A stretch of 64,000 nucleotides of DNA, from the IMG/VR virus record IMGVR_UViG_3300028048_000054. One strand, written 5' to 3'. Source of the DNA: a virus. Taxonomy: Duplodnaviria > Caudoviricetes. Within the stretch, counting starts at the first letter, position 1; each line of letters opens with the position of its first letter. The notes beneath the pieces were generated by a model. The model saw nothing but the letters and a program-made list of their open reading frames with translations, was not told the DNA's origin and ran no database searches. Shown piece after piece: positions 9,901-36,837 of this stretch. A program made the translations under genes and the position numbers.

Positions 9901-11284
9901 TGAGAAACCAGAACCTGGTATCAAAGACTTGCAAGAGAAGTATTCATACAATAGTAAGTCAAATAAGAAAGATTATGTGAAGTGTGAGTATAATGTTTAT
10001 GCTCAACGTAGTGATAATTTTCTATCTGAATCTGGTACACGCAAAGCGGTAGCACAATTAACAGGTACACTACAACCCGCATTTGCATTAGGTGCATCAG
10101 AAATTCCATTAGTATTCTCAAATTATAAGACCAATCTTGAATTATTGACAGAAACAGCAGAAAAGTTTAATTTCTTCTTATATTCAAATAGGTTTGGTGT
10201 TGTACGGTTCGCACCTCCTATGGTTTCATTGGCAAATTTAAGTATTCGTGATGGTGTATTAAATGAATCTGCAAGAGATGATGAGTATGACTATTCATAT
10301 TATACAGACTCACCAGATATTTTGAGTAAACAGAACACTATTTCATTTAGAGAAAGTTGTGATGACTCAAAATTGGTAACCTGGATTCAATTAACTGGTG
10401 GTCTAGTAGCATCAGCAAGTTTAGATGTCTCAAAGGCTGGTGTTGCCACACCTGTTGCTAACTGGCCATTGATTAAAAAATATGGTTATCACTCACAGAA
10501 ACAGCAAGCAGTTATTGGTATTAATAGTTTGCCAGCATTAAGAGCCTATGGTATGGCCCTTATGGACAGAGCAAATAAAAATTTTAGAACTGCTACTTGT
10601 GATACAATGGGTAGCGGTGATATAGATATTAATAAGACCGTTTATAGTTCTATTAATAATACTGTGTATCTGCGTGTAGGTTTAAGTTCTCACTATCAGG
10701 CTGGTAATACTTTTATAACTTCTTCAACATTAAACTGGGGTAGAAAGCCACTATGTACATTTTTTGAAGAAGTGGTCGAGAAGTCATCAACATATACAGA
10801 ATACAACACTGATGAGTCTGGTGGATATTTGAGTAAACCAGAAAATGTTTCAATATTACCAAAATTAACAACTCTGACAAGAGAAACAATGTCAAGAGAT
10901 GTAAATATTGATGCGTTTAAAACTAGTTTAGAGACATTATTTAAGCAGAATTTAATTACTAATGCTTATTACAGACAGATAAAGGGGTTGTTATCGGCTT
11001 ACGATACCAATAAGAATTATAAACAATTGTTCTATTCCTTTATATTTAATGGGTACTTCTGGGAAGGTGTACCGTCTATTTCATTTGAAGACTTATCAAC
11101 AGAGTTCTATTCTGAAAATGTTGCTAATGGGTTAGAAGAATCTGTATTTAGTGGGCAGAATCCTAATGATAAAAAAGGTAAGAAGAAGCCCAAAACAAAA
11201 GAAATTAACAATACAACTTCTGTGTTCCTTGGGTTATTTGACCAATCTTCTGTGAGTAAGATGCAGGACACTTATACATCATAA
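6974..11284 (+). CDS. Large baseplate hub-like protein
   Basis: 1436 aa; C-terminal half has hub-like segments (SQATITLKNNDNKY...FEPMDEVSIYL...FTGFLDS; NFFLYSNRFGVVRF; IKKYGY); N-terminal ~700 aa unrecognised. Confidence 0.55.
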   Translation: MAYIEKSLNTAHFTRPAVVLFKKPLATNEEMTAELEKLIGDAYPMETHTLTSYSGKGNPKAIFYCVSTGAYKVVNYDENAYFHIIDYKDTKENILSKKIDFDLATAKAPVINSSFRRKLWKTAVDSVSLANPATALPYIIGIFLKKSTTTILQNTGKILTNDFLKEAIDKYYDGVDKESEDSLTNTLNRTWYVFSLDDDYYVPEIKYNVKETLGTNYQEEHYVEHGPAGVESTAKVPESFGTTGYGISTLDTHVVQSTCSLTKNAFIRSAAFARNREKLIEIFAKYKILSIYQVVLQESVDCKDITKVTYKQALDDFNNYMKNANAKAFAEFNCEIATFYNSMYNKYSFRAEYYKATDEKNFRIIDKFSASASKFLSTDKYKIKVTTLFPELNRDLLLAMNPKIANGVEYPLSAFKGAFRSLYNLSYYVDSEGGNSKVGYIVFTESDTFRDAVDAYYFLAERINRSINAVDAKTEQQLLKYYNVSAEFPLRYKYQELTTGSMMAISASVLKDDYNTYGSDQKEQKVHINDNNAVQPTGIRKSNTIQFRAFLESMNRGRIGTRESTTITYTSRKMGGFNPLMIDFKLMYYMMIKYNVVLPKYNKLEPEFIHGNNSNSTVRMFPINFFTATGKLESGTFSNISGISRKQKNSDGTTNYAFDFESIKKLPIKDKKRLVSMYESVYYGGWAGFYYTNATTYSEDIAPYYNTQLSDEVLTTIQEVLNEEDESNYTEKFSPLTDFTDFRYLTELNDVKNSDVSDIVVSRQTMGKSQATITLKNNDNKYVFKDGIFKGECIFEPMDEVSIYLPTTSGGLTLSFTGFLDSTDVASTNGYNMISLQCSCPIKLLEINRTNVKPSMSGGLEADYAPLNPFLVPPKMMESMEKWVPFMFVQPLTYMTSMLGDITSPESTYTYKTVELASEGGYHIFGPKFEDDLLQYLWSRRSQHIKDSEAANLALKNLIDKYTDTVTYKNGEELGSEKPEPGIKDLQEKYSYNSKSNKKDYVKCEYNVYAQRSDNFLSESGTRKAVAQLTGTLQPAFALGASEIPLVFSNYKTNLELLTETAEKFNFFLYSNRFGVVRFAPPMVSLANLSIRDGVLNESARDDEYDYSYYTDSPDILSKQNTISFRESCDDSKLVTWIQLTGGLVASASLDVSKAGVATPVANWPLIKKYGYHSQKQQAVIGINSLPALRAYGMALMDRANKNFRTATCDTMGSGDIDINKTVYSSINNTVYLRVGLSSHYQAGNTFITSSTLNWGRKPLCTFFEEVVEKSSTYTEYNTDESGGYLSKPENVSILPKLTTLTRETMSRDVNIDAFKTSLETLFKQNLITNAYYRQIKGLLSAYDTNKNYKQLFYSFIFNGYFWEGVPSISFEDLSTEFYSENVANGLEESVFSGQNPNDKKGKKKPKTKEINNTTSVFLGLFDQSSVSKMQDTYTS

Positions 11285-11286
11285 TA

Positions 11287-11308
11287 GTATACACTTTGGC
11301 ATTAAGTG
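11287..11308 (+). promoter_or_regulatory. Candidate late promoter motif, copy 2
   Basis: GTATACACTTTGGCATTAAGTG in the gap before the spike-like gene. Confidence 0.6.
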
Positions 11309-11319
11309 AGGAATGTGAT

Positions 11320-12840
11320 ATGTCTGATATAGGTGATGTTTTACGTGATATTGATAAGCCAGATGTCTCTGATTTAGGTGATTATACCAAGAGTATTCGG
11401 TTTGCACGTATTTTAAATGTTTATGACGCATCTATATTAGAAGCCTCTGCTAGTGCTAAAAATAAGTATGGTAAGGCAGATATACTGTTTTTAGATGGTT
11501 TAGGAACTGTACCAGTAGAAATTCCTATATTAACAAACTGGTTTTCGTGGACTCGTGGTTCTGGTATTATGTTTATGCCAGAGCAGAATGATATAGTAGC
11601 CTGTTTAATGCAGCATAATGGGTACCCAATTATTATTGGATTTTTGCCATATAAGTGGGACGAGACAACTGAAAAACCAGTAAAATTAAGAAAGACCTCT
11701 GTTGGATATACAAAACCACTTTATAAAGGTGAGGTATTGATAAAATCATCTTCTGGTGGAAATATCCTACTAAATAAAAGTGGTTCAGTAGAGGTTAGCG
11801 GCGTAGATAGTTCTATTAATGAAATGGTTATATCTGAAATAGATGGAAATAACCAAGAAGTAATGTTTAATAGAACATTAGATGGTAATGAGGCTGGTGT
11901 ATCAAAAACAGTTGTTGGTAAAAGATACCTGCCAGATGGAACACCAAAATACGTAGGAAATTTTCCACAGATTTTTGAAAGTGGGGTTTCAACACATTAT
12001 ACACAGTCTATAGAACTTCCTTATGCTGAAAGTATGTCTTTTAATCTTCAGGAAGATGCAGAAATCACTGAAGTTACATCTGTAGAGGTGGTGTCAAGAG
12101 CAGGGAACACATCAAAGACATATACTCTAGGTGAAAAACAATACTCGCTTGTTGCAGAGAATATTTATACACCTGGTTCTAGTAATGATAATGAGTTGTA
12201 CTATAAACCCGCTACTATAGAGAAAAATTCTATAAAATACACTTTAATTATTCCTAATAAGGGATTCTCTAATGCAACCGTAAAATTAACTTATGAGGCA
12301 AAGGTATTTGTTGGCGGTGTTAGAGTCAATAGTGGTGGGGACTTATTTTTAGATGGACGCAATGTTATAGTACGTTCAGCAAATGAAAATGCAACACTCG
12401 CTTTAACAGATGATGGTAGAGCAACATTACGTGGTGGTGGTAATACCAGTATTGGTAATGCATATGGTGGTGTATTAAGGTGTACACAAGCAGGTGTAAT
12501 GTACAGTAATGGTATCGGAAGGGACTCTATGGGAGACCCTGATGCACCAATCACCAAGATGTCATTGTGGTCCGCATTAGGTGCTGAAGATAAGGAATTT
12601 GGTTCACTGTTTTATATATCGGACAACTTACCATTATTTAGATTGTTTAAGAGTGGAGATGTGTGGGACTACAAAGCAGTGACAGATAGTGAATATGCGT
12701 CGTTATCAACAAAATCTAGAGCCACAGTTAATAAATTAACCATTTCATTATGTGGATTCTTCCTAACCAAAGAAAAATTAGCAAAACTATTATTAGAAGA
12801 TGCCACATCATATGGTGATTTGAAAGCAGGTGTGAAGTGA
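11320..12840 (+). CDS. Putative baseplate spike/central protein (gpV/gp5-like N-terminal OB domain)
   Basis: Start refined to ATG 11320 (GAGG SD). RFARILNV...GSGIMFMPEQNDIVACL...PIIIGFLP resembles the gpV/gp5 OB-fold; beta-strand repeats follow. Confidence 0.55.
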   Translation: MSDIGDVLRDIDKPDVSDLGDYTKSIRFARILNVYDASILEASASAKNKYGKADILFLDGLGTVPVEIPILTNWFSWTRGSGIMFMPEQNDIVACLMQHNGYPIIIGFLPYKWDETTEKPVKLRKTSVGYTKPLYKGEVLIKSSSGGNILLNKSGSVEVSGVDSSINEMVISEIDGNNQEVMFNRTLDGNEAGVSKTVVGKRYLPDGTPKYVGNFPQIFESGVSTHYTQSIELPYAESMSFNLQEDAEITEVTSVEVVSRAGNTSKTYTLGEKQYSLVAENIYTPGSSNDNELYYKPATIEKNSIKYTLIIPNKGFSNATVKLTYEAKVFVGGVRVNSGGDLFLDGRNVIVRSANENATLALTDDGRATLRGGGNTSIGNAYGGVLRCTQAGVMYSNGIGRDSMGDPDAPITKMSLWSALGAEDKEFGSLFYISDNLPLFRLFKSGDVWDYKAVTDSEYASLSTKSRATVNKLTISLCGFFLTKEKLAKLLLEDATSYGDLKAGVK

Positions 12841-12841
12841 T

Positions 12842-13174
12842 ATGAAAAAAGAAAAGAAAGAATTTAGAACCGTTAAATGTGCTTGTTGTGGTAGATATGA
12901 AAAACAAGTAGACAGCAGGGTTGTTGATTGGTATTGTTCTGATTGTTCATTTGGTAATGGTAATTTTTTTAGAAAACAGGCTGGCAGACCAATTATTAAA
13001 CCAGCAACAGGCGTAAAGAAGGGTTCCATTGTTAAATCTGTTTTTGGAAAAGAATACAAAGTTTTAGGGATTGGTTATAAATTCCAAAATACAACTTATT
13101 ATTTTGTTGTAGAAAAAAATGCACAGGACGGGGTTCCTAGTTTTTTAGGGGACTACCAGATAATTAGCAAATGA
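12842..13174 (+). CDS. Hypothetical Zn-ribbon protein
   Basis: 110 aa, basic, CACC...CSDC. Confidence 0.5.
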   Translation: MKKEKKEFRTVKCACCGRYEKQVDSRVVDWYCSDCSFGNGNFFRKQAGRPIIKPATGVKKGSIVKSVFGKEYKVLGIGYKFQNTTYYFVVEKNAQDGVPSFLGDYQIISK

Positions 13175-13647
13175 CATTAATGGACTCATTGAGTAATCAG
13201 GGGATAGAAATATCACAATATATGTCTGCAACAACTATTATCAAATATGTTAGCAGTTTAGGTGCATTGATGCCTGTATTTCCAAATGTATTCTCAATGA
13301 TTAATACATTACAGTCTTATGTTGATAAATATAAGAGTGCTGTTCAAGCACTGGATAAAGCGCAAGGTGTTGTAGATAATGCACAAGCAAAATTAGAACA
13401 AGCAAAGGATATGTATAACAAAATTTTAAATACTCCTACAGCGTATATTGGAACTGGAATTGGAACAGTATCAATCAATCCGTCAGCAACTATAGCCTAT
13501 CACGCAGCAATTGAGGCTGCACAAAAGGCACTAGACCAAGCAGAAAAAGCATTAGAGAAAGCAAGACAGAAAGTGGATAGTATATATGACCAGATTGAGA
13601 AATATAAAGACACTGTAGTAAATCAATTGATGTCAATAAAGGTATAA
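13171..13647 (+). CDS. Hypothetical coiled-coil (helical hairpin) protein, probably virion-associated
   Basis: 158 aa; two heptad-rich helices (ALDKAQGVVDNAQAKLEQAK / AQKALDQAEKALEKAR) flanking a G/T-rich loop; ATGA overlap with the upstream gene. Confidence 0.5.
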   Translation: MTLMDSLSNQGIEISQYMSATTIIKYVSSLGALMPVFPNVFSMINTLQSYVDKYKSAVQALDKAQGVVDNAQAKLEQAKDMYNKILNTPTAYIGTGIGTVSINPSATIAYHAAIEAAQKALDQAEKALEKARQKVDSIYDQIEKYKDTVVNQLMSIKV

Positions 13648-13649
13648 AA

Positions 13650-15065
13650 ATGGCAATTACAAAAGACACATTATTAAGTTTATCAAGAAAATTAATATCA
13701 GCCAGAAATAATAACATTGACTTAACAACTGGTACAGTATTAAGTGATTTAGGTGTTGATGCTACAGCACAAATTTTAGCATCGATTTCTGCTGATATAG
13801 ATAGAATTATAGGGCAACAAGCATTAAATAGTGAGTATTTCACAGATGAAGAAGCAGATATGCTTGTTCAGTCTTTTGGTATTAAGAGAAAAGAACCTGG
13901 TTTTGCCACAGGTAATATTACCTTTGCAACACGCGACCTTCCTTCAGCGTCATCTCCTATTGTTATTCCAGTAGGTACACAAGTTTATACTTCGTCAGAA
14001 AACAATTCTGCAAGTTATTACTATGAAACAACTTCATCTGGGTCAATAACAAGCACAGCACCATTTAATACAACTACTGGGTACTATGAGGTTACAGTAA
14101 GTATTAAAGCAATGTCACCAGGAACTGATTACAATGTGGGTATTGGTTATATTAATGGTTTAAGAAGTTCTATCTCTGGTGTATCAGCGGTTTATAATAA
14201 AAATGCTATTGTTAATGGTACAGACACTGAATCGACTGAATCGCTATTAAATAAATTTTTAATCTATTGGCGTGGAAGAAATAGAAACACAGAACCTGGT
14301 ATTTTGGCTTGGACCTATGAAAATCCAGTTGTAGAAGAAGCAAAAGTAATTGGTCCAGATAATGACTTTGCTTTACGCGGTCCAGGTGCTGTTGACGTGT
14401 ATGTTCGTGGTATTACCGATTTAACTTATACACAAACCATTACAACAATAACTAAAGAGGTTCTTTTTGCTAAACAGCCTGTTATTAACATTGACACACT
14501 GTATGTAACAGTTGGTTCGGACAACTTTACTATTAATGATGGTGTATTTTCTATTGTAAAAGATACCGAAACAATTTATCAAGGTTCAAATGCTGCCCAC
14601 GATAAACTAGTGTGGACTGATGATGGTTATGATATTGTAAAAAATGTAACATCATACACCATAACATACTCATACAATTCATTAATCGATGATTTGCAAA
14701 GTATGTATGATAATGATGAAGAACGGTTAATTACAGGGGATATTCTGGCAAGAGAAACTTATAAAGTAGAAGTTGTAATGGAATTTGGTATTACAACTTT
14801 TCCTGGTGTTGATAAAGCCACAACAATATCTTTGGTCAAAACCAATATTCAAAACTTTGTAAATACGACACCTTTAAATACTGACTTAAAACAGTCAGAT
14901 ATTGTTGCAATTATTGAGGGTACCGATGGTGTATCCTATACTGCACTGCCATTTCTGCAATTCCACAGAGTAGGTGAAACTGACGAGAATAAGTGGGTGG
15001 CAGACATCGATTCATCTCCATTAGAATATTTTAGAGTTCAAAACGAGAATATTATTATTGGTTAA
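13650..15065 (+). CDS. Baseplate J-like wedge protein
   Basis: FGIKRKEPGFATGNITF...IPVGTQV; PGTDYNV...GVSAVYNKNAIVNGTDTESTESL; RGPGAVDVYV: classic gpJ motifs. Confidence 0.85.
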   Translation: MAITKDTLLSLSRKLISARNNNIDLTTGTVLSDLGVDATAQILASISADIDRIIGQQALNSEYFTDEEADMLVQSFGIKRKEPGFATGNITFATRDLPSASSPIVIPVGTQVYTSSENNSASYYYETTSSGSITSTAPFNTTTGYYEVTVSIKAMSPGTDYNVGIGYINGLRSSISGVSAVYNKNAIVNGTDTESTESLLNKFLIYWRGRNRNTEPGILAWTYENPVVEEAKVIGPDNDFALRGPGAVDVYVRGITDLTYTQTITTITKEVLFAKQPVINIDTLYVTVGSDNFTINDGVFSIVKDTETIYQGSNAAHDKLVWTDDGYDIVKNVTSYTITYSYNSLIDDLQSMYDNDEERLITGDILARETYKVEVVMEFGITTFPGVDKATTISLVKTNIQNFVNTTPLNTDLKQSDIVAIIEGTDGVSYTALPFLQFHRVGETDENKWVADIDSSPLEYFRVQNENIIIG

Positions 15066-16339: not shown

Positions 16340-16663
16340 ATGACAGACTTATCAACATTAGTAGTTTTATGTTCAGTAGGTACAATAGGTGTAATTCAGT
16401 GGACTAAAGAATTGGTTCAATCTGTTTCCACTAAGAACTTTGACCACCTATATCAAGTTTTATTGTCTTTATTTCTATCAATAGTATCTGGTTTCTTTAT
16501 TTGGAAAATTAAATATTCCACAGAAACATACTATATGGTATTCCCTCTAACACTTGGGGTGTTATCAGTAGTGCAATTAGGGTATGATAACATTATTAAA
16601 TATCTTCAACAGGCCATTGAAGGTATAATGAAAAAGTTTATTTCAAATGAACAAGATAAATAA
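16340..16663 (+). CDS. Putative holin (3 TM)
   Basis: 107 aa, three hydrophobic segments and a charged C-tail, directly after the endolysin. Confidence 0.65.
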   Translation: MTDLSTLVVLCSVGTIGVIQWTKELVQSVSTKNFDHLYQVLLSLFLSIVSGFFIWKIKYSTETYYMVFPLTLGVLSVVQLGYDNIIKYLQQAIEGIMKKFISNEQDK

Positions 16664-17201
16664 AATAATCATTTTTATGTTACTCCTGGTTCTAGGTGTT
16701 TTGTTATTTCAAAACTACCTACTTCGCCGTAATGTAAAAGAGGCCGTAGAACAAGGTGGAACATTACCTCCAGGTGTACAGCAAGAAGTAACTGTTAAGC
16801 AGGACCACGTTACAATTAAAGAGAAAGAAACCAATACTGTAACAGGGGAAGTGATGGTTAACACTCAGACATTATATGTACCACCAGAAGGTCAAGTGGT
16901 TATTACAACAACTGATGAGGGTAAGACATCAGTGAAACTAACTAATAAGGGATTTACATTTACACCAGGTTTAGTATTTGTACCATCAAAAGATATGAAT
17001 ATTGGTGTAAATGCTAGATTAGTGTACTGGAATAGATTTGGTGCTGGTGTTGGTGGTATTATTTCAATCACAGATGACCCAAAACCAGCGGGAATTGGTT
17101 TTGTAGATTATAGATTTTATAAGAATTTTGCAGTAGGTGTGGCATATAGAGAAGCAATAACTGAACGTGGTATAGGTGCAACTCTTACATACTACTTTTA
17201 A
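16647..17201 (+). CDS. Putative spanin-like protein: N-terminal TM anchor plus C-terminal amphipathic beta-strands ending in Phe
   Basis: MNKINKIIIFMLLLVLGVLLF anchor; the last ~85 aa are alternating-hydrophobic strands ending GIGATLTYYF; third gene of the lysis cassette. Confidence 0.5.
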   Translation: MNKINKIIIFMLLLVLGVLLFQNYLLRRNVKEAVEQGGTLPPGVQQEVTVKQDHVTIKEKETNTVTGEVMVNTQTLYVPPEGQVVITTTDEGKTSVKLTNKGFTFTPGLVFVPSKDMNIGVNARLVYWNRFGAGVGGIISITDDPKPAGIGFVDYRFYKNFAVGVAYREAITERGIGATLTYYF

Positions 17202-17212
17202 GGAAGATAACA

Positions 17213-17722
17213 ATGGGCTATAAGAAAAGAACTCCAAATACATATGATTTACTAGCAACTAAAGTTCTAACATATGTTAATGAAGAAGATAAGAACGGCA
17301 GAGAAGTTGCGTGGGTTGTTGACGAATATGAAGATACTAAGATTCGTGAGTGGAACTCGGTTATTGATTTAGGAAAAGATGATGCCGAAGAATTGGTAGA
17401 GCCAGATTTGGTACAAGAAGCCCGTTATGAACTGTTAACTCCATCTGTAGACGGAAATGTTGACCTACACTTAGCAGACGGTACTTTTACTGAAGAAGAT
17501 GGAACTGCTTCAACAGCAACATCTCGTATGTATACAAAAACTACATATGTAAAAGTAATCGACAAAGAACACTATAATTTTAATGATTTAATGATTTTTA
17601 AGAACGGTACTCTTCAAGATAAAGTAAAAGATATTGCTTTTGCAGGGGAAGATACCATTCGTTTTGTTTTACCATTAGACGCTGGAGATATTATCCACGT
17701 AAGAAAACAAATTGGCTTATAA
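17213..17722 (+). CDS. Hypothetical protein, probably virion structural
   Basis: 169 aa; C-terminal LMIFKNGTLQ...DTIRFVLPLDAGDIIHV resembles small Ig-like virion repeat domains. Confidence 0.45.
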   Translation: MGYKKRTPNTYDLLATKVLTYVNEEDKNGREVAWVVDEYEDTKIREWNSVIDLGKDDAEELVEPDLVQEARYELLTPSVDGNVDLHLADGTFTEEDGTASTATSRMYTKTTYVKVIDKEHYNFNDLMIFKNGTLQDKVKDIAFAGEDTIRFVLPLDAGDIIHVRKQIGL

Positions 17723-28647: not shown

Positions 28648-30716
28648 TGAAGAAAGTAAATTATTTTTCTGGTATGTCAGTTAAACCTGACGATTTAATG
28701 ACCACACAATCCTTCTTAGAAAGACGGATTGATTCAAATATGAACGTGATAGGCAACCACGGTGTTGTTGTTGGTGCTACAACGCAAACAGGTACTGTGT
28801 TGAACTATCCTTATGTGTGGAATGATAGCACTTCCTTGGGTGTTTATGGTTTAATTGCCTACGATTGTTACGGTAGATTTATTTATGTAGAACCAAAATA
28901 TGATGATTTGGGCGTGAAGATTCCAACAGTATCCAATTTAACTCCAGATGAGAACGGAAAATTAGTAGAGGCTGGGGGTGGCACATTTATATCTAATACC
29001 ACTTACATAATGGTTATTCGTTATGCAGAAGCGTTGGACCCAGACTCTGTAAGACCTAACAGAAGAACTGGGCAACTAGTTCCAGCCCGTATTGATACTG
29101 GGTTTGAATTATATGTTAGAAATGGTGTTGAAAATGTTTTATCTGGTGATGTGATTTTAGCCTATATTACTACTGGGGAGCCACAAGGAACTGGGGACGG
29201 TGGTACTATTGTAAATATTAAGTCTGTTGATGAGTCAAAACGTGACGTATTTGGTTTGAATATTGACTTATTAAGAGCCAATATGGAAAATGAAGCAAAT
29301 GCAGCAGCATTGGGAGACAATCTAACATTTTCCGACCATATTAATATGGTTGGTGGTGGAAAAGTAACACGTACAAATCCACACGGTCTTTCCGCAGCCG
29401 ATTTGAATATTGATATTGCTGCTACTGGGAAACACCAAGAGTATTTGCATAGCAATGGTATTAAAACGAATGATATAAGTTCTACTACTTCAGCACTATG
29501 TCCAAGTAAATTTGTTACTTCTGAAACATCTGAAGAGGAAGTACACGTAGAAGCACTATCAGAAGAAAATAATGAAATTGTTGTTGTAAATGGTACAACA
29601 TTGACCCCATCTGATTTAGGGGACAGATATGTATTAAAATTATCACAATATGCTTCACCAGAAAATGAAGGTTTTTATATTGTTTCTGTAAGTGCTGACG
29701 AAAAGGCTATTGTATTAAGTGGCCCATTTACTAGTGAGTCAGCAGATGGATTTAAAGCAGTATTAACTGATAATAAATATTTACCTATTTGTTCTTTCCA
29801 CTGGGGTAGACCATACTATGTGTACTATACGATGCTACTAGAAAAAGTAACAGGAAGTACCGCAGAAGACCCTGACGAAAGAGAAGAAGATATTTATAAA
29901 ACTTTAACTAACGTACCATCAACGCACGTATTTATTGATAACACAACAACAACGTCAACAACAATTTTAGCAGCAGATGTAGTTGTTCGTGGCGTTGACC
30001 CAGTAACGGGTGTATATACAGGTAGTATTATTAGAGAAACAGAAGGTGGACCACAATATTGGGTAATTTCTAAAACACAAAATTTAGACGAAGAAGATAG
30101 TTATGAGATTGACCCACTGTCCTGGAAAGATAGACGTGTATTTAATAACACAGATTTTAAGGATATTCGCAGAGAAGATTTAGCGGCTATTCGTGATTCA
30201 GCACCATTTTCTAACAATGATGTGACAATCTACTATGCTCGTGTAGAATCAGAAAATCAGTTGTCTTATTTCCCAGTAGGTAATAAAACCTTGTATTTAG
30301 TTTTAGACGGGTACAATTTTGAGTATACTTTTACTGGTGTTAACGAATTAGATAAAGACCAATTATTATCTCAATTAAATAAAGAATTTGCATCCCAAAT
30401 TCCAACAGAGATTAAGCCATTAGCATATATTAATCATAATAAACACTTAACTATAGTTGCGTCCAAATCTATTACAGTTGGTAATGGAACAGCAAATGAT
30501 ATTCTCGGTATTGTGCCGATGACAGACTCTGGAGAGGATGTAAAAACTCTTATGTATGTGGGCGATATGCCAAGTGTGCAAGAGATGTACTATGATGAGT
30601 CTGGTAATTTAACACAAGTGTACTATATTACAGAAGGAAACTACTTACGTTCGCACCTACTGTCTTATAATGGTGACTTTGTAAGTGGAGTTAAAGAAGT
30701 GGTGGAGGTCTACTAA
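28647..30716 (+). CDS. Virion structural protein (baseplate/fibre), paralog B
   Basis: 689 aa; MKKVNYFSGMSVKPDDL, TNPHGLSAADL, HQEYLHSNG and DRRVF shared with paralog A. Confidence 0.55.
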   Translation: MKKVNYFSGMSVKPDDLMTTQSFLERRIDSNMNVIGNHGVVVGATTQTGTVLNYPYVWNDSTSLGVYGLIAYDCYGRFIYVEPKYDDLGVKIPTVSNLTPDENGKLVEAGGGTFISNTTYIMVIRYAEALDPDSVRPNRRTGQLVPARIDTGFELYVRNGVENVLSGDVILAYITTGEPQGTGDGGTIVNIKSVDESKRDVFGLNIDLLRANMENEANAAALGDNLTFSDHINMVGGGKVTRTNPHGLSAADLNIDIAATGKHQEYLHSNGIKTNDISSTTSALCPSKFVTSETSEEEVHVEALSEENNEIVVVNGTTLTPSDLGDRYVLKLSQYASPENEGFYIVSVSADEKAIVLSGPFTSESADGFKAVLTDNKYLPICSFHWGRPYYVYYTMLLEKVTGSTAEDPDEREEDIYKTLTNVPSTHVFIDNTTTTSTTILAADVVVRGVDPVTGVYTGSIIRETEGGPQYWVISKTQNLDEEDSYEIDPLSWKDRRVFNNTDFKDIRREDLAAIRDSAPFSNNDVTIYYARVESENQLSYFPVGNKTLYLVLDGYNFEYTFTGVNELDKDQLLSQLNKEFASQIPTEIKPLAYINHNKHLTIVASKSITVGNGTANDILGIVPMTDSGEDVKTLMYVGDMPSVQEMYYDESGNLTQVYYITEGNYLRSHLLSYNGDFVSGVKEVVEVY

Positions 30717-31579
30717 TGGATTCCATAATTCTAGCAACTGCCATTAAGTTGTATAAAAAACTTATCTCATTTATTACTGATTACCAAAGTGATTTATTTG
30801 GTACAGGTAAAGAAAGTATTTTTATTGGTACAGAAGATTCAGAAGTTCCAGCAGGATATACTTTATGGCAAGTAGGGGCAAACAATACTTATACTTTAGA
30901 CTCAGCAACAGTTCCACAATTTAATAACATTACTATAGATAGTAATTGTAATTTGACATCAAATGCACACTATCTATTCTTATATGTGAAAGATACATTA
31001 AGAATTAAAATTGGTGGAAGACTTCATTTAGATGCTAAGGGTGTTCCATCCTATTCTTTTTCACCATTTTTGCCACGTGCTGCTGCTGGTCGTTCTACCC
31101 CTGCATATACAGCAGCGTGCCTACGATTATTTATGAGTGGAAGAGATGTACGAACACCATTTGATTTAAGTGTAACTGGAAGTAATGCACCAGCGGGTAC
31201 AAACGGTATTGCAGGTGCTGGTAATGTGGGTGGTAGTGGTGGTGTTGTTTGTTTATTCCACGCTAATGATGGACTTGTAAGTTATAACACTAACTCTGGA
31301 TTATATGGTGGAATTTCTACAGATTTTGTTACAGCCAATGGTGGAGCAACAGGTGCCAACGGCGGTGGTATGCTTTTTGTATTTGCCCATAAAATTGTTA
31401 TAGAAACTAATGATGAAACTGCTCACGGTACAATTTCTGCTAATGGTGGAGACGGTTTAGGTGTACGCAGTTATATTAATAGTAACCCAGGTGGACCAGC
31501 AGACAACCCAACAGGTGTCCAAAATGCTGATTTTGGTGGTGGCGGTGTAGTTCATCACGTAGAATTGGATGTGATTTAA
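30716..31579 (+). CDS. Glycine-rich virion protein, paralog 1
   Basis: 287 aa; LYVKDTLRI...LHLDAKG, GGSGGVVCLF, GGGMLFVFAHKIVI, GTISANGG, FGGGGVV. Confidence 0.55.
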   Translation: MDSIILATAIKLYKKLISFITDYQSDLFGTGKESIFIGTEDSEVPAGYTLWQVGANNTYTLDSATVPQFNNITIDSNCNLTSNAHYLFLYVKDTLRIKIGGRLHLDAKGVPSYSFSPFLPRAAAGRSTPAYTAACLRLFMSGRDVRTPFDLSVTGSNAPAGTNGIAGAGNVGGSGGVVCLFHANDGLVSYNTNSGLYGGISTDFVTANGGATGANGGGMLFVFAHKIVIETNDETAHGTISANGGDGLGVRSYINSNPGGPADNPTGVQNADFGGGGVVHHVELDVI

Positions 31580-32628
31580 TGAGAGATGCTACAATACAGT
31601 ATTTACAAAAATCATTGTCAATCATAGATGGTTTAAAGATTGATGGAAAGAAATCAACACTGTTTGGAGAAAGTGGTGTTGATTTGGTTTTTACTCGTTC
31701 AGGTGTTTTTACCGAATTATCAAATCCATATACAGCAAATGGTTTGTTAGAGTATAGAAATGTGACTATACCAGAGGGTGTTAGTATTCAAGGGAATACA
31801 TTTTATGGGGGTGACGTTAGTGGTAGTAGACCGTTTTATTTAAAAGTAAATGGAACTCTTACAGTTAATGGTAAATTAAATATGGACGGTTTAGGACAAC
31901 AGGGATTTAGTGATGGTGTTAAGAGTAACCACGATGCCTATTATTCAGAAAATTTTAATGATTTAGGATACACATTGCCTGTTGTTGGAAATGGTGGGCA
32001 ACTATCATATAAGAATTGGAAAAATTTATATGATTATGGTCTAGTACACTCTTTTTTGAGTCCCAAAACTTGTTTAGTTGGTGCTGGGAGTGGGATGTCA
32101 AATAAGTATAAAAAGAAATCTTCTCGTAAATACTATTATAGGCACTCACAACGCTCAACTGCTTTGAATAGTAGTGGTTTTGTGTGGGATATGAATGACC
32201 GTACTGGTAGTGGTGGGGGGTTTCTTGCTTTGTATTATGAAAATTTAGACTACCAAGGACCTACTTGGAACGGGTACCCAACGAATATAAATTGTAATGG
32301 TGGTGGAACATATTGGGGTGCTGGTCATACGCGCGACCCTTGGTGGGGTGGTGGTTGTATGATTATTGCAGCCAAAAATATTGTTGTAGGTCCAAAAGGT
32401 TCGATAACTTGTAACCCCTGTCAGGCATCACATAGGTCTGTAACGGGCAACTTTTATTTGTATGATTCAGATAATAATTCTGGTGGGATTTCATACTTAA
32501 ATAGATATGCTGCCAGAGATATTGATTATGCGTTTGGTTCTTTTCGTAGTATGGACGCAAAATCTGGTGGCGGTGGTGTTTGTCTAGGATATAAAGTTTC
32601 ACAAGTATTTAGAGAGCAGAACAGATGA
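31579..32628 (+). CDS. Glycine-rich virion protein, paralog 2
   Basis: 349 aa; YLKVNGTLTVNGKLNMDG, GSGGGFLALY, GGGCMIIAAKNIVVGPKGSI, SGGGGVC. Confidence 0.55.
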   Translation: MRDATIQYLQKSLSIIDGLKIDGKKSTLFGESGVDLVFTRSGVFTELSNPYTANGLLEYRNVTIPEGVSIQGNTFYGGDVSGSRPFYLKVNGTLTVNGKLNMDGLGQQGFSDGVKSNHDAYYSENFNDLGYTLPVVGNGGQLSYKNWKNLYDYGLVHSFLSPKTCLVGAGSGMSNKYKKKSSRKYYYRHSQRSTALNSSGFVWDMNDRTGSGGGFLALYYENLDYQGPTWNGYPTNINCNGGGTYWGAGHTRDPWWGGGCMIIAAKNIVVGPKGSITCNPCQASHRSVTGNFYLYDSDNNSGGISYLNRYAARDIDYAFGSFRSMDAKSGGGGVCLGYKVSQVFREQNR

Positions 32629-33890
32629 AGATAGCATCATTTAACGAGATTAATAGATGTATTCAGAAAGTAAATAAATTAACCAGTTCTGGTAGATTAT
32701 CCTTATTTGGACGTGGTACAGATAATGTTGTCATTAATAGTAATACAATTCCAAATGGCCAGACTTTAATGGATTATTATCTGTATCAATACCCAAATGC
32801 TGAACTTCCATTAGAGTTTGGTAATTTGACTATTAATAATGGTGCTAATGTAAAAGTAACTGATGTAAAAACTGATGAAGATGGAAATCAAATCAATGGC
32901 TCACAAGTTGCTTATCTGAAAGTAAATGGAACTTTGACCGTGAATGGACACCTGCATATGGATAATGCGGGTGGATACTTTACTAGTAATACAGGAACAA
33001 TTATAACTGACTCAGAAGATTATCCAATATACAATAACAATTTTGCGTACAATTCATTTAATAATTTATCATTACCACAAGTAGCACAGACTGGGTCGTG
33101 TACAAATGAATTATGGTCACGCTTAACCAACTATGGTATTCAAGAAACATTTTTTACTGGTACTACAGCATTAACAGGTGCTGGAGGTTCTGGTCATACA
33201 AGATTTCAATATGATTATTGGGTAGATGAGGAGACAGGGGTTGCTTGTGAGTCTCCGTGGGATGATGAAACATACCCAAAAATTAACCCATACTGCAATT
33301 CTGGAACACGAAGATGGGGATACTATAGGCGGTATAAGGGACAATATAAGTGGTTTTGGAACTCTGGTGGGTATAACGCATACAAAGAAAAAGTAATCGC
33401 AAACACTGAAAAAGTCCAAAAATTCCAATATGAGACTCGTGGTGCAATCTCCAATTCTTGTTTATCTGGTAGTGGAGACTATAATCTAATACCAAAAACT
33501 ACTGTTGATGGTAAAATTAGCATTGGCGGCGGTGGCGGTGGATTTATTGCCATTTATGGAGAGTCTCTAGTTAATAGAGGACCACACTGGTTAGAGGGGA
33601 ATATTCGCAGACCATTAAATGTTCACGCTAATGGTGGTACTGAACTTTTACAAAATGTAGAGCCAGAACAAGAAATTAGAGGTGGCGGTGGGTTGATAAT
33701 TTCTGCTAAAAGAGTTGTAATCGGTCCTTATGGTTCAATTACGGCAGATGGTGGTAATGGTCAAGGACTTATGACACTTTTAAATCGTCCACCATACACA
33801 GGATTATATACTTATAATAATGGCTCTCCAGCGGTATACACCGACACATTAAGTGGGGGAGCAGGGTACGCTCAATTTTTTCAAAGATAA
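32625..33890 (+). CDS. Glycine-rich virion protein, paralog 3
   Basis: 421 aa; YLKVNGTLTVNGHLHMD, GGGGGGFIAIY, GGGGLIISAKRVVIGPYGSITADGG, SGGAGY. Confidence 0.55.
   Translation: MKIASFNEINRCIQKVNKLTSSGRLSLFGRGTDNVVINSNTIPNGQTLMDYYLYQYPNAELPLEFGNLTINNGANVKVTDVKTDEDGNQINGSQVAYLKVNGTLTVNGHLHMDNAGGYFTSNTGTIITDSEDYPIYNNNFAYNSFNNLSLPQVAQTGSCTNELWSRLTNYGIQETFFTGTTALTGAGGSGHTRFQYDYWVDEETGVACESPWDDETYPKINPYCNSGTRRWGYYRRYKGQYKWFWNSGGYNAYKEKVIANTEKVQKFQYETRGAISNSCLSGSGDYNLIPKTTVDGKISIGGGGGGFIAIYGESLVNRGPHWLEGNIRRPLNVHANGGTELLQNVEPEQEIRGGGGLIISAKRVVIGPYGSITADGGNGQGLMTLLNRPPYTGLYTYNNGSPAVYTDTLSGGAGYAQFFQR
33834..33855 (+). promoter_or_regulatory. Candidate late promoter motif, copy 4 (inside 3' end of upstream CDS)
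   Basis: GTATACACCGACACATTAAGTG; both conserved halves with the same spacing, ~80 nt before the 33937 start. Confidence 0.5.
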
Positions 33891-33893
33891 TAC

Positions 33894-33922
33894 TTGACAA
33901 AATACACAAAATTTGATATAAT
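33894..33922 (+). promoter_or_regulatory. Sigma70-type promoter heading the radical SAM operon
   Basis: TTGACA (33894-33899), 17 nt, TATAAT (33917-33922), with TG extended -10. Confidence 0.85.
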
Positions 33923-33936
33923 CAATAGGTAGGAAT

Positions 33937-34422
33937 ATGGAAACAACGAAAACGCTCGATGCAATAAATGATTCAAGGCAGACTGAACCTGGTGTTTATG
34001 TTTGGGGTAAATTTACTCCAGATACAGAGGGCACAGGGTTTCAAGATTTACCAGTATTAAGTGCTCCTAAAGCAACAGACACTATGGCGGTTGATAATGG
34101 TGGTGCTACTCTATGCCAATGTGAGTTAAGTACGATTGCTGCATTGAGAACTGGTGATATTGCAACTTCAACGGCTACAAACTTCAATTCATTAAATGGT
34201 GATGTTATGTACTACTTTATTAACTCTGTTGCAGACACGACACAAAATGCGCCTGAAAATGTTACTGCTGGTTGGTTTGTTCAAGTATTCAGAAGTGGAA
34301 ACTATATTATGCAAATTGCTTACCGTGTAGATAATCCATCTAGACAGTACCTTCGTGGGTATAACGGAAGTGTGTGGTCTACTTGGGCGTTCCCATTCGG
34401 TTCTTGGTTCCCAGGTAATTAA
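33937..34422 (+). CDS. Small protein with pyocin-knob-like C-terminal domain
   Basis: NAPENVTAGWFVQVFRSGNYIMQIAY...QYLRGYNGSVWSTW matches the fibre knob pattern. Confidence 0.6.
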   Translation: METTKTLDAINDSRQTEPGVYVWGKFTPDTEGTGFQDLPVLSAPKATDTMAVDNGGATLCQCELSTIAALRTGDIATSTATNFNSLNGDVMYYFINSVADTTQNAPENVTAGWFVQVFRSGNYIMQIAYRVDNPSRQYLRGYNGSVWSTWAFPFGSWFPGN

Positions 34423-35111
34423 TGAGGATTTGTATGAACGAAATTGTTATTGATAAGACAGGACTTGAAGTAGAAAATTTAGATTTAGAAAGTGCTGTAA
34501 AAATTATTTATAAAGTAGATGATAAAGATTTTATGATTAAACATCTTACTGAATTAAATAATTTTGAGTTAAAGAAACAGGAAGAAAAGAATCCAATTGA
34601 AGTACATCTAAATTTTAAATATTTGTCTTTTGATACAAGATTGGAAATTTTAAGATGGGCACTGACAAAAGAAGACTTAATTGATGCTTCACTTGTATTA
34701 AATATTTTTAACTTAATTAAAGGTTACAGCACATTTGATAAGACATTCTTTGATTCAGAAGAAGTAATGTTCAATAAAGCAACAGAGTTTTTAGATTTTA
34801 AGCGCAAATTAGCAACAGAGCGTTCAAAGTTTTTAAGAGAATTGGCTCGTTACTATTTTTCTGCCATTAAGTCTTGTGGAATTGTGGAATATGCCGTAGA
34901 CAACCCACCTTTGATTATACCCTTTGTATATCAAAGAATACTATTAATTTCTGATTTTATTACAATGTCAAATATGCTTTGCGATATTGTTGAAGTTAAT
35001 AATTTGGTAAATGTAGCCAATGCAAGATTTTTTATTGATTCAATGTCTACAAAGAACTCAATAGCAAATATTTTTATTAAAAGTTTAGGAGTACAAGATG
35101 GGCTATCCTAA
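34422..35111 (+). CDS. Hypothetical protein in rSAM operon (possible start 34434)
   Basis: 229 aa, helical, no recognised motif; overlaps both neighbours. Confidence 0.55.
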   Translation: MRICMNEIVIDKTGLEVENLDLESAVKIIYKVDDKDFMIKHLTELNNFELKKQEEKNPIEVHLNFKYLSFDTRLEILRWALTKEDLIDASLVLNIFNLIKGYSTFDKTFFDSEEVMFNKATEFLDFKRKLATERSKFLRELARYYFSAIKSCGIVEYAVDNPPLIIPFVYQRILLISDFITMSNMLCDIVEVNNLVNVANARFFIDSMSTKNSIANIFIKSLGVQDGLS

Positions 35112-35796
35112 TGTTACTGTTACATACGGGACTTTAATGACAAATACATTGAATACTATTTTGTCATTAGTTCAAAATGCTGATTCTACAACTGAAGACC
35201 ATTATTCAGCAAATGTTCCAGCAGAATTTAAACCAGGATACAGAAACACAATTTCCTTTAAACGTCCTGGGTATTCTGGTCAAAACCCAGATTTATTAAA
35301 GTATATGTACTATTATATGGACAGGGTAGCAGATACACATTTAGCCACAACAACAGCATCAACAATTACAGCAGAGTTTAATGCTTTTATGGCAGCCCGT
35401 GGTGTCACAGCAAACTCATCAAAAGTAGTAAATACTCGTGGACTTATTAATTTTTATAATAATGTGGCCTCGTTCATTAGTAAAAAACTAATTCTCGTAA
35501 CATCTCAATTAAACTCAACAGAAGTAATCTTTTATGACCCAGTAGTATATGACCCAAGTGAGTATCCAAGTGTAACAACGTATGATGGTTCATCAAATGA
35601 TGCTATAAGTGGTCAAGATGTAAACGAGGTACTAACAACTTTAAGAGATACAATAAATAATGTGTCCCGTGTTGAAATTGTTAGATATGCTATAAGTTAT
35701 ACTTCTAGTTCTTGTAGTTCATCTAGTTCAAGTTCTAGTTCTAGTTGTTCTTGTTCTAGTTCTAGTAGTATTTTTATAGGATGGTGGAAGATATAG
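35098..35796 (+). CDS. Ser/Cys-tailed protein 1, candidate rSAM substrate
   Basis: 232 aa, AGGAG SD; ends TSSSC-S10-CSC-S5-IFIGWWKI; paralog of the next gene. Confidence 0.75.
   Translation: MGYPNVTVTYGTLMTNTLNTILSLVQNADSTTEDHYSANVPAEFKPGYRNTISFKRPGYSGQNPDLLKYMYYYMDRVADTHLATTTASTITAEFNAFMAARGVTANSSKVVNTRGLINFYNNVASFISKKLILVTSQLNSTEVIFYDPVVYDPSEYPSVTTYDGSSNDAISGQDVNEVLTTLRDTINNVSRVEIVRYAISYTSSSCSSSSSSSSSSCSCSSSSSIFIGWWKI
35722..35794 (+). repeat. 73-bp exact direct repeat, copy 1
   Basis: TCTAGTTCAAGTTCTAGTTCTAGTTGTTCTTGTTCTAGTTCTAGTAGTATTTTTATAGGATGGTGGAAGATAT, identical to 36419-36491. Confidence 0.9.
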
Positions 35797-35797
35797 T

Positions 35798-36493
35798 ATG
35801 CCAATAGTTAATCATAAACCAATTACATATGATGATTTAGTTACAACTACACTTAGTCATATTCTTTCAATTGTTCAAAATGCCGACCCAAATACTGTTG
35901 ACCATTATGCGGCATCAGTTCCAGCAGAGTTTAAACCAGGATATGTCGTCTCAGACGCACTTCCTTGTACAGAAGCAGCAAGTCAAGAGATATTGCAGGG
36001 GTATCAGGCAGTCTATTCTCTTCCAGCAGATGTCAACTTGAGTGCCACGACACAATCGAAGATTAGTTCAGATTTTATTTCTTTTATGACTAGCCGTGGT
36101 ATTTATAAATCTGGTACCACTGAAATCACAGCCAAAGGAATATTAAATTTTTATAATAATGTGGCCGCCTTTATTTCAGCAAAACTTATTATTGTTACGT
36201 CAAATAGAAATTCAACAGAGTGTGTATTTTATGATGCTAATGATAATATTGTTATTCCAACTGTACCACAATCACTTGATAACAATACAACGGCCATTAC
36301 TAATGCGAACATAAACGATTTGTTATCAAATTTAATGAGTACCGTAAACAATGTATCAAAAATGTATATTGCAACATACAATATTGTGGTTGGGTGCTCT
36401 AGTTCAAGTTCCTGTAGTTCTAGTTCAAGTTCTAGTTCTAGTTGTTCTTGTTCTAGTTCTAGTAGTATTTTTATAGGATGGTGGAAGATATGA
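35798..36493 (+). CDS. Ser/Cys-tailed protein 2, candidate rSAM substrate
   Basis: 231 aa; ends GC-S5-C-S9-CSC-S5-IFIGWWKI; shares VQNAD, VPAEFKPGY and NFYNNVAxFIS blocks with protein 1. Confidence 0.75.
   Translation: MPIVNHKPITYDDLVTTTLSHILSIVQNADPNTVDHYAASVPAEFKPGYVVSDALPCTEAASQEILQGYQAVYSLPADVNLSATTQSKISSDFISFMTSRGIYKSGTTEITAKGILNFYNNVAAFISAKLIIVTSNRNSTECVFYDANDNIVIPTVPQSLDNNTTAITNANINDLLSNLMSTVNNVSKMYIATYNIVVGCSSSSSCSSSSSSSSSCSCSSSSSIFIGWWKI
36419..36491 (+). repeat. 73-bp exact direct repeat, copy 2
   Basis: Identical to 35722-35794. Confidence 0.9.
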
Positions 36494-36837
36494 TAGATGT
36501 TCTTTTTGAAAAACTTTATGAGTTACAAGAGAGTATTGAAAATGTAGCCATACAGATTATGGCCGCAATTAAGGCCGAGTTAGAGCCATTACCAAACCAA
36601 ACATTGATGTTCGAAGAAGCATATGCAAAACCTGTAATTTATACACATAAAAATGACGATGACCAGTATGAAGTAAAAGTATGCTTTATTAATGGTGCAA
36701 AGGTTGTTGACAATACTCTATTTATTTTGTATAATAATGTTGAAGAGAATGGCGAAGATGGACAAATTGATGTAAACAATTTAAGTTTAGAAAACGCCAT
36801 TATTTGTTTTGAAGCAATTAAAAACAATTTGAAATAG
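36490..36837 (+). CDS. Small acidic hypothetical protein in rSAM operon
   Basis: Start refined to ATG 36490 (ATGA overlap with the upstream stop); ~115 aa, acidic, no recognised motif. Confidence 0.55.
   Translation: MIDVLFEKLYELQESIENVAIQIMAAIKAELEPLPNQTLMFEEAYAKPVIYTHKNDDDQYEVKVCFINGAKVVDNTLFILYNNVEENGEDGQIDVNNLSLENAIICFEAIKNNLK

Follow-up and report, generated by a model that had tools for sequence, protein, structure and literature searches.

The anaerobic sulfatase-maturing enzyme (anSMEcpe, PDB 4k36-4k39), which modifies a residue in a full-length protein and accepts either Ser or Cys at the same site, is among the closest described systems to the locus analyzed herein, a cassette in a 64,000-nt stretch of DNA (hereafter the window) from an uncultured giant phage of the cattle gut. 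In this cassette, two neighboring genes encode predicted folded proteins ending in a Ser/Cys tract and a hydrophobic tip (the follower), adjacent to genes for four radical-SAM (rSAM) paralogs, A to D. anSMEcpe was the nearest solved structure to the model of paralog C, tied with others (Z 14.9, rmsd 4.1, 267 residues aligned, spanning the whole model), and Ser and Cys are exactly the two residues allowed in the tract. The sequence identity was, however, only 14-16%, no Pfam or NCBIfam membership was found, and the C-terminal site is a reduced C-x-H...CxxC (plus one extra Cys in paralog C) rather than a two-cluster SPASM domain. Moreover, the cassette has four paralogs instead of one enzyme and about 20 putative target residues instead of one, and lacks a sulfatase motif.

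A precedent for rSAM maturation of a full-length protein is the HXS antiphage system (PMC13128918), in which several rSAM enzymes (HxsB/HxsC) and a small accessory protein (HxsD) mature HxsA, a protein carrying His-x-Ser repeats, and the modified protein itself is the effector. HXS is a bacterial defense system, not phage-encoded, and carries five HxS repeats rather than a homopolymer-like C-terminal Ser/Cys tract with a follower; no HxsB or HxsC model was found among the NCBIfam hits of the window enzymes at E<=0.1, and the tail contains no His. The rSAM-matured RiPPs, namely the sactipeptides/ranthipeptides (CteB, SkfB, PapB), streptide (SuiB), and epipeptides (EpeE/YydG), share the fold class (Z 12-14.5), weak PapB/AlbA profile hits for paralog D, and a Cys-containing core encoded beside its enzymes. 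In the window cassette, in contrast, there is no leader peptide, RRE domain, or SPASM domain, the core sits at the end of a 200-residue folded body, a follower takes the place of a leader, four enzymes are present, and some cores in the family lack Cys. The RimO/MiaB/MtaB methylthiotransferases, of which RimO methylthiolates a protein side chain, resemble the N-terminal half of one 666-aa protein of the cassette, although all scores were below the family cut-offs, rSAM paralog B replaces the TRAM domain, and the domain is optional in the cassette. Finally, polyserine linkers of carbohydrate-active enzymes (e.g., Teredinibacter turnerae, PMC2699552) are likewise long runs of Ser, but they join two domains, whereas the run described here is terminal, capped by a conserved follower, admits only Cys as a second residue, and is linked to rSAM genes. 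Our literature searches on polyserine or Ser-rich sequences with radical SAM and phage, and on jumbo phages with radical SAM, found nothing on this system, and no paper describing rSAM tailoring of a phage protein tail was found in a limited set of full-text searches.

Organization of the locus

The features of the cassette, all on the plus strand, are as follows.

33894..33922 (+): perfect sigma-70-type promoter (TTGACA-17-TATAAT, 12 of 12 matches), ahead of the knob, 229-aa, and tailed-protein genes
33937..34422 (+): 161-aa tail-fiber knob-like protein (phrog_2915 tail fiber, E 1e-4)
34422..35111 (+): 229-aa accessory protein, helical, with no named family
35098..35796 (+): Ser/Cys-tailed protein 1 (232 aa), predicted alpha/beta body with no known fold, followed by the tail
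35704..35769 (+): core 1, 22 residues, S3-C-S10-C-S-C-S5
35770..35793 (+): follower 1, IFIGWWKI
35722..35794 (+): 73 nt identical to 36419-36491, a gene-conversion tract over the core end and follower
35798..36493 (+): Ser/Cys-tailed protein 2 (231 aa), a paralog of protein 1
36395..36466 (+): core 2, 24 residues, C-S5-C-S9-C-S-C-S5
36467..36490 (+): follower 2, IFIGWWKI
36478..36837 (+): 119-aa protein without assigned function
36707..36735 (+): second perfect sigma-70-type promoter, just ahead of the rSAM genes
36861..37811 (+): rSAM paralog A (316 aa), with CxxxCxxC, GGE, and C-terminal C-x-H...CxxCD
37798..39798 (+): 666-aa fusion of a MiaB/MtaB/RimO-like methylthiotransferase domain without TRAM and rSAM paralog B, which has no C-terminal Cys/His site
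39800..40711 (+): rSAM paralog C (303 aa), the best-conserved part of the cassette (49-74% identity across loci)
40708..42231 (+): 507-aa fusion of a P-loop ATPase-like N-domain and rSAM paralog D
42257..42283 (+): terminator-like hairpin (11 pairs plus a T run) closing the cassette

The knob-like protein was homologous to the ends of 695-aa and 1911-aa ORFs in L005 and L009 (the L numbers designate the phage loci compared), and in relatives it corresponds to the C-terminus of long fiber proteins directly upstream of the cassette. Homologs of the 229-aa protein were identified in nearly all loci, adjacent to the tailed protein; since their alignment showed no invariant residue, it is probably a non-catalytic partner, and no Pfam, PHROG, NCBIfam, or PDB match was found. 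Genes of similar size to the 119-aa gene hold the same position in L001 and L005, but no sequence similarity was detected, and the gene had no detectable homolog in the other loci.

The bodies of the tailed proteins had no Pfam, PHROG, or NCBIfam hit, and megablast and tblastn searches against 50,697 phage records found no match. An AF2 model gave pLDDT values of about 80-90 for the body and below 35 for the tail. Foldseek searches with the body model against PDB and BFVD found nothing at E<=0.001, and a wide VIA search gave a best Z of only 4.6, to designed helical proteins, which is uninformative. An ESM Atlas feature search scored at or below 0.83, which was likewise not informative. Profile searches of PDB sequences with the body, the 229-aa partner, and paralog C gave only chance or low-complexity hits. 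A scan of genome contigs found only MAG bins holding phage-sized contigs with conflicting taxon labels, and thus no host could be assigned.

The Ser/Cys tract and its follower

The original prediction, made from the letters of the window alone, had described a pair of proteins of about 230 residues with a poly-Ser/Cys core and a shared C-terminal cap, and this observation was confirmed. The counts of 19 Ser and 3 Cys in protein 1 and of 20 Ser and 4 Cys in protein 2 were exact, and the bodies were 48% identical over 227 residues, in the blocks that had been listed, with a variable stretch after KPGY. The Cys positions near the C-terminus, which had been regarded as fixed, are shared by the two window proteins through the 73 nt of identical DNA, which is local gene conversion, and are not fixed across the family. 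Only one position, 7 residues before the anchor Phe, was preferred, with 33% Cys against 2-13% at the neighboring positions (-2 to -6 and -8 to -12).

To determine whether the tail is merely a neutral low-complexity linker, which would have been indicated by homologs that mostly lack it or show random tail length and Cys placement, we surveyed the family. A profile search found at least 489 clusters at 50% identity, 334 of them at E<=1e-10. Of 159 retrieved members, 120 had a tract of at least 12 residues plus a follower, and most of the rest were contig fragments or short tracts with the same follower; the tail was thus far beyond chance. Homologs down to 26% body identity kept the tail, and nearly all full-length members kept a tract of about 20 residues (median 20, IQR 18-23). 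In 141 distinct tails, the 12 residues before the follower were 96-100% Ser or Cys, and Thr, Gly, Ala, Pro, and Asn were almost absent, although each is one nucleotide away from a Ser codon. At least 1 Cys was present in 115 of 118 tails (mode 3-4), while three had none, and these can pair with a Cys-bearing paralog; cores of the sactipeptide/ranthipeptide thioether type require Cys donors in every core. The follower was a fixed C-terminal motif, x-[F/Y]-I-[A/V/G]-Y-M-x-[I/L], of which the IFIGWWKI of the window is a divergent form, and its distance to the C-terminus was also fixed. Furthermore, paralog tails in nine other phages (L006, L021, L023, L024, L026, L028-L032 without L027) agreed in protein sequence but not in DNA (identical runs of 8-30 nt), indicating that the constraint acts on the protein.

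The body has a hypervariable segment that accepts insertions of up to about 190 residues, including a Gly_rich_2 domain, many cassettes also hold a tail-less paralog, and two relatives (P0121 and P0124) replace the tail with a glycine-rich domain, so the body works without the tail. The C-terminal glycine-rich half of the fusion P0121 was not detectably similar to the upstream glycine-rich ORFs of the window.

The radical-SAM paralogs and their linkage to the tailed proteins

Every homolog context with enough flank had the 229-aa-type gene and rSAM paralogs next to the tailed-protein gene. Conversely, of 27 IMG/VR loci found with paralog C alone, 25 showed a tailed protein within the locus; of the two apparent exceptions, L034 has it 2 kb away on the other strand, and L008 is cut at the contig end. 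In about 30 jumbo-phage loci the association held despite reshuffled gene order, inverted orientation, and duplication of the whole cassette (L026 and L030 carry two), so the linkage is not just frozen synteny, although all loci come from one broad lineage of related large phages and part of the linkage could therefore be inherited.

CxxxCxxC, GGE, and an S-x-D-x3-R motif were invariant in all 99 aligned paralogs, and each of the ancient paralog groups had its own conserved residues. The enzymes, which belong to no named family, thus fit the rSAM superfamily, whose hallmarks are the CxxxCxxC cluster motif and the GGE SAM-binding motif on a partial TIM barrel, while Pfam PF04055 reached its cut-off only for the MiaB-like domain. 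The model of paralog C had a pLDDT of 96 and matched rSAM structures at Z 12-15; following anSMEcpe, the nearest structures were SuiB (14.5), CteB (14.2), viperin (14.1), SkfB (14.0), and ChlB (13.9). Since viperin acts on nucleotides, the fold alone does not prove a peptide substrate. The seven-Cys SPASM motif binding two auxiliary clusters was not found: only C-x-H...CxxC was conserved in A, C, and D (plus Cys286 in C), nothing was conserved there in B, and no SPASM Pfam hit was obtained, so the site may be a single reduced auxiliary site. Nor was an N-terminal RRE (PqqD-like) domain, present in many SPASM/twitch maturases but not in anSME, recognizable, as the cluster motif starts at about residue 13 in A, C, and stand-alone B and D, leaving no room for it.

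MiaB/RimO methylthiotransferases have a UPF0004 domain with three Cys, an rSAM domain, and a C-terminal TRAM domain. In the 666-aa protein, Pfam UPF0004 and Radical_SAM domains were detected, but TIGR00089 (2.5e-57) scored 194.6 bits against a cut-off of 251, and no TRAM hit was found; paralog B, which follows instead, stands alone in L003. A methylthiotransferase-like domain or gene recurred in the cassettes of the window, L001/L002, L005, L029, and L032, and a NifS-like gene recurred in about 20 other loci.

Possible roles of the Ser/Cys tail

Taken together, we consider it more likely than not, though by no means certain, that the C-terminal 30 residues form a protein-borne, RiPP-like substrate module on a folded alpha/beta protein of about 200 residues from a jumbo myovirus of the cattle gut, with a core of about 20 residues that may only be Ser or Cys and a seven- to eight-residue hydrophobic follower ending the chain. 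In this view, paralogs A-D would act on the core after translation, helped in this phage by the fused methylthiotransferase-like and ATPase-like domains, and in all phages probably by the non-catalytic 229-aa partner, and would most likely abstract hydrogen from the CH2-OH or CH2-SH side chains or the alpha-carbons. The product would stay attached to the body, which would work with the tail-fiber apparatus and carry the variable, insertion-tolerant surface segment. Of this scheme, our analysis established the conservation and exclusive Ser/Cys composition of the tail, the strict gene linkage, the intact rSAM motifs in all four paralogs, and a predicted fold of the peptide-modifying rSAM type, whereas it is inferred, without direct evidence of modification, that the tail is the substrate, that the follower is a docking or assembly tag, and, from gene position beside fiber genes only, that the protein is virion-associated. 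As to the chemistry, the candidates in our order of preference are oxidation of Ser/Cys to formylglycine as in anSME, which would explain why Ser and Cys are interchangeable, Cys-to-carbon thioether bridges, and epimerization. The recurrent sulfur-handling accessories hint at C-S chemistry, but the three Cys-free tails indicate that Cys-dependent chemistry cannot be obligatory for every copy. The interpretation given in the original prediction was thus partly supported: the body/core/follower design and the link to the rSAM genes were supported, whereas its choice of an enzyme-recognition or assembly tag for the follower remains conjectural, and its rigid, metal-binding or membrane-penetrating element stands without evidence either way.

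More tentatively, and at less than even likelihood, the cassette may install a new kind of post-translational modification, repeated about 20 times along the Ser/Cys homopolymer on a folded tail-associated protein to give a poly-formylglycine, thio/ether-bridged, or alternately epimerized rod, which is made by four dedicated enzymes of an unnamed rSAM family and needed for adsorption or infection. If the tail is modified, this would be a phage-encoded protein-maturation pathway, widespread in jumbo phages of rumen and gut, with its own enzyme family (at least 791 protein clusters at 90% identity, all unnamed) and substrate family. Considering its extreme substrate of about 20 consecutive target residues, it could reveal new iterative radical chemistry and a new material-like element in virions, and it would give a handle on host recognition in phages that have no cultured host.

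Among the alternatives, the least improbable, though still unlikely, is that the tract is a flexible polyserine spacer whose hydrophobic end forms a beta-strand plugging into another virion or assembly protein, while the rSAM enzymes are mere neighbors engaged in nucleotide, DNA, or cofactor chemistry like viperin. The apparent disorder of the tail in the AF2 model, the tie with viperin, the tail-less and glycine-rich paralogs, and the relatedness of the phages are consistent with this idea. However, natural polyserine or Ser/Thr linkers tolerate Thr, Gly, Pro, and Ala, vary widely in length, and lie between two folded domains, which disagrees with the composition, narrow length range, preferred Cys position, and terminal placement observed here; the linkage survives rearrangement of the cassette as a unit, and Cys in an exposed linker has no rationale. 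It is less likely still that the body is only a giant leader, from which the modified tail of roughly 30 residues is cut off as a small bioactive peptide. Although the core/follower layout and multiple rSAM enzymes resemble RiPP clusters, and long leader domains exist in proteusins, no protease or exporter gene was conserved in the cassette, the hypervariable segment fits an exposed functional surface rather than a leader, and the retention of tail-less paralogs and the position among tail-fiber genes argue the same way.

We regard it as very unlikely that the tail binds iron, sulfide, or a cluster as scaffold or donor for the phage's own Fe-S enzymes. Cys is present in most tails and NifS-like and MiaB-like accessories occur in the cassettes, but most tails have only 2-5 Cys at variable spacing, Ser is a poor cluster ligand, and the folded variable body and conserved follower would not be explained. 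A functionless low-complexity tract or slippage product, as might be suspected from the simple sequence and the 73 identical nt, was refuted by the homolog survey. No length variants or indels were seen in contigs from four public runs, but these break at the 73-nt repeat and thus say nothing on tract-length variation, and those from RNA libraries do not prove transcription. The tract was encoded by mixed, non-repetitive codons that differ between paralogs; in agreement with the alternation of AGT with TCT/TCA that had been noted, Ser codons showed moderate over-alternation, with 225 AGY/TCN switches across 24 tracts against about 182 expected from a calculation on those counts.

Ser/Cys tails of the paired proteins and their conservation

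The window is phage DNA with all genes on the + strand and a GC content of about 35%, and it carries a baseplate-wedge gene (phrog_6, E 3e-31) and tail-protein genes together with a weak, sub-threshold tail-sheath match (E 0.005). The observation behind the original prediction, namely two adjacent ORFs ending in a poly-Ser/Cys core capped by a hydrophobic follower, was confirmed in the translated sequence:

35098-35796, + strand, 232 aa, ending S3-C-S10-C-S-C-S5 and then IFIGWWKI
35798-36493, + strand, 231 aa, ending C-S5-C-S9-C-S-C-S5 and then IFIGWWKI

The bodies of the two proteins are 48% identical, whereas the last 73 nt of the two genes are identical. In nine other phages that carry two or more tailed paralogs, the tails agree in protein sequence but share only 8-30 identical nt. 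The nucleotide identity in the window is therefore a local gene conversion, and the general constraint acts on the protein.

To determine whether the tail is more than low-complexity sequence, we collected its homologs. A word-indexed search found 17 relatives, the alignment of which showed the tract and a hydrophobic end even at 26-30% body identity, and a profile search of 1.84 billion representatives found 489 clusters, 334 of them at E<=1e-10. Of the 159 proteins then examined, 120 carried a tract of at least 12 residues plus a follower, and the rest were mostly contig fragments, short tracts with the same follower, or true tail-less paralogs. The tract length had a median of 20 (IQR 18-23, range 6-32), and the Cys count was mostly 2-5. 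When the tails were anchored on the follower, the 12 preceding positions were 96-100% Ser or Cys, with Thr, Asn and others appearing only sporadically. Cys was scarce in the five positions next to the follower and peaked at position -7, at 33%. The follower reads x-[F/Y]-I-[A/V/G]-Y-M-x-[I/L], and the chain usually ends there; the IFIGWWKI of the window is a divergent variant shared only with its closest relatives. The tail is thus more than low complexity, and the condition that had been set in advance as refuting the prediction, tails that are absent from homologs or random in length, was not fulfilled. The accompanying claim of fixed Cys placement, however, held only in part.

Genomic context of the tailed genes

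In the window, the tailed genes lie within the following arrangement, in which the genes are on the + strand:

33894-33922, perfect sigma-70-type promoter
33937-34422, + strand, 161-aa fibre-knob-like gene
34422-35111, + strand, 229-aa unknown
35098-36493, + strand, the two tailed genes
36478-36837, + strand, 119-aa unknown
36707-36735, second perfect promoter
36861-37811, + strand, rSAM paralog A
37798-39798, + strand, MiaB-like domain fused to paralog B
39800-40711, + strand, rSAM paralog C
40708-42231, + strand, ATPase-like domain fused to paralog D
42257, terminator-like hairpin

Two further promoters at 42228-42256 and 42325-42354 bring the total to four perfect 12/12 matches to TTGACA-17/18-TATAAT within 10 kb, which suggests a host with a canonical sigma-70 (not Bacteroidota-type promoters) and separate transcription units for the substrate and enzyme genes. 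Upstream, at 30716-33890, three consecutive ORFs (287, 349 and 421 aa) are rich in Gly runs and end in short hydrophobic strands, with no family hit. Just after the cassette, a 225-aa ORF at 42357-43034 contains a K-x-D-G-type nucleotidyl-transferase (ligase-like) motif and is followed by a helicase-like 490-aa ORF, marking the start of a replication or repair module.

The contexts of distant tailed homologs showed the same partners. Among these loci (numbered here with the prefix L), L001/L002, L005, L006 and L007 showed the same set, whereas L003/L004 has four stand-alone paralogs and neither the MiaB nor the ATPase domain, which shows that those two domains are optional. In L032, two stand-alone MiaB-like genes (UPF0004 plus rSAM) of 543 and 528 aa lie inside a cassette at 10952-14172, showing that the methylthiotransferase-like module also occurs unfused. 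Within the rSAM cassette of the distant relative L003, a 111-aa S-adenosylmethionine-decarboxylase-like gene (13342-13677; PF02675, 26.8 bits, just above its cut-off) was found that is absent from the window, and in the relative L001 an IS605 OrfB/TnpB (Cas12f-like) gene (16432-17631) is inserted directly after the cassette.

In the reverse test, a search that started from paralog C alone retrieved 27 IMG/VR loci on contigs of up to 314 kb. Of these, 25 showed a tailed protein, most of them also a 229-aa-type gene, and several rSAM paralogs. Of the two apparent exceptions, L008 is cut at the contig end, and L034 has two family genes 2 kb away on the opposite strand. Gene order differs between loci: the partner gene lies before or after the tailed gene, and paralog A lies first or last. 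Two loci, L026 and L030, carry two complete cassettes per phage, each with a tailed protein, a body paralog or second tailed protein, the partner and the rSAM genes. Linkage that survives shuffling, inversion and unit duplication argues for a functional unit. Many cassettes pair a tailed protein with a tail-less body paralog.

The stretch occurs in bovine gut metagenomes from 12 studies, and the public contigs break exactly at the 73-nt repeat. MAG bins that hold relatives carry conflicting taxon labels and are phage-sized contigs.

The rSAM paralogs and the predicted structure of the tailed protein

An alignment of 99 paralogs kept CxxxCxxC, GGE and an S-x-D-x3-R motif invariant. Groups A, C and D keep C-x-H...CxxCD, to which group C adds one more Cys, whereas group B has none of these, and each group has private conserved residues. 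Judged from these sequences, the paralogs are four old, subfunctionalised and apparently active enzymes. None of them reached a Pfam or NCBIfam cut-off apart from the generic PF04055 hit of the MiaB-like domain, and a profile of all four groups found at least 791 unnamed metagenomic proteins. Paralog C was modelled at pLDDT 96, and its nearest solved structures formed a tie among anSMEcpe (Z 14.9), SuiB (Z 14.5), CteB (Z 14.2), viperin (Z 14.1), SkfB (Z 14.0) and ChlB (Z 13.9). The predicted fold class is that of peptide- and protein-modifying rSAM enzymes, but viperin is not excluded.

The body of the tailed protein was modelled as an alpha/beta domain (pLDDT 80-90) with an unstructured tail, and the fold and sequence searches revealed no known relative. 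The segment after the K-x-G-Y motif is hypervariable and in relatives accepts insertions of up to about 190 residues, including a Pfam Gly_rich_2 domain. The body family is fused to, or interrupted by, glycine-rich domains: the family members P0115 and P0124 hit Gly_rich_2 (PF21722), while a third, P0121, has no Pfam hit. In P0121 and P0124 a glycine-rich C-terminal domain stands in place of the tail, and both end in a strand-like Y-[IV]-K-I-[IV]-[YF]-K motif instead of the Ser/Cys tail. Furthermore, the knob-like gene just upstream of the cassette is the C-terminus of long fibre proteins in L005 and L009. We infer that the body is a functional, probably exposed, tail-associated protein and not a mere leader.

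Proposed modification of the Ser/Cys core

The interpretation in the original prediction was partly supported. In the best-supported reading, which we hold with moderate confidence, the core is modified by the rSAM set while attached to the body. The conservation of the tail and its linkage to the rSAM genes are findings of the sequence comparisons, whereas the modification itself is inferred from them and from the predicted structures. The exclusive use of Ser and Cys, with Thr barred, fits an enzyme that needs a CH2-XH side chain; anSME turns both Ser and Cys into formylglycine, which would explain their interchangeability, although thioether formation and epimerisation remain possible. Within a phage, the followers of paralogs resemble each other more than those of other phages, as a shared docking partner would produce. 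The competing readings are that the tail is a linker plus anchor, that the protein is a giant-leader RiPP, that the tail is a metal carrier, or that the tract is neutral.

The nearest functional precedents are anSME, which acts on a protein substrate with a Ser/Cys target; the HXS defence system, in which two rSAM enzymes and a small protein mature a full-length HxS-repeat protein (PMC13128918); and the rSAM RiPP maturases. Membership in each of these fails on at least one defining feature, and the cassette is thus an unnamed system, although its general kind is known.

Sulfur-handling accessories also recur with the cassette, which hints at C-S chemistry but proves nothing. A methylthiotransferase-like domain or gene was found in the window, L001/L002, L005, L029 and L032, whereas a roughly 320-aa gene, here termed NifS-like although it had no Pfam hit at E<=0.01, was found at 15922-16899 of L003 and in about 20 other loci. 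The NifS-like gene is missing from the window, L001/L002 and L005, which instead carry the MiaB-like and ATPase-like fusions, and the two types of accessory were never seen together in the stretches sampled.
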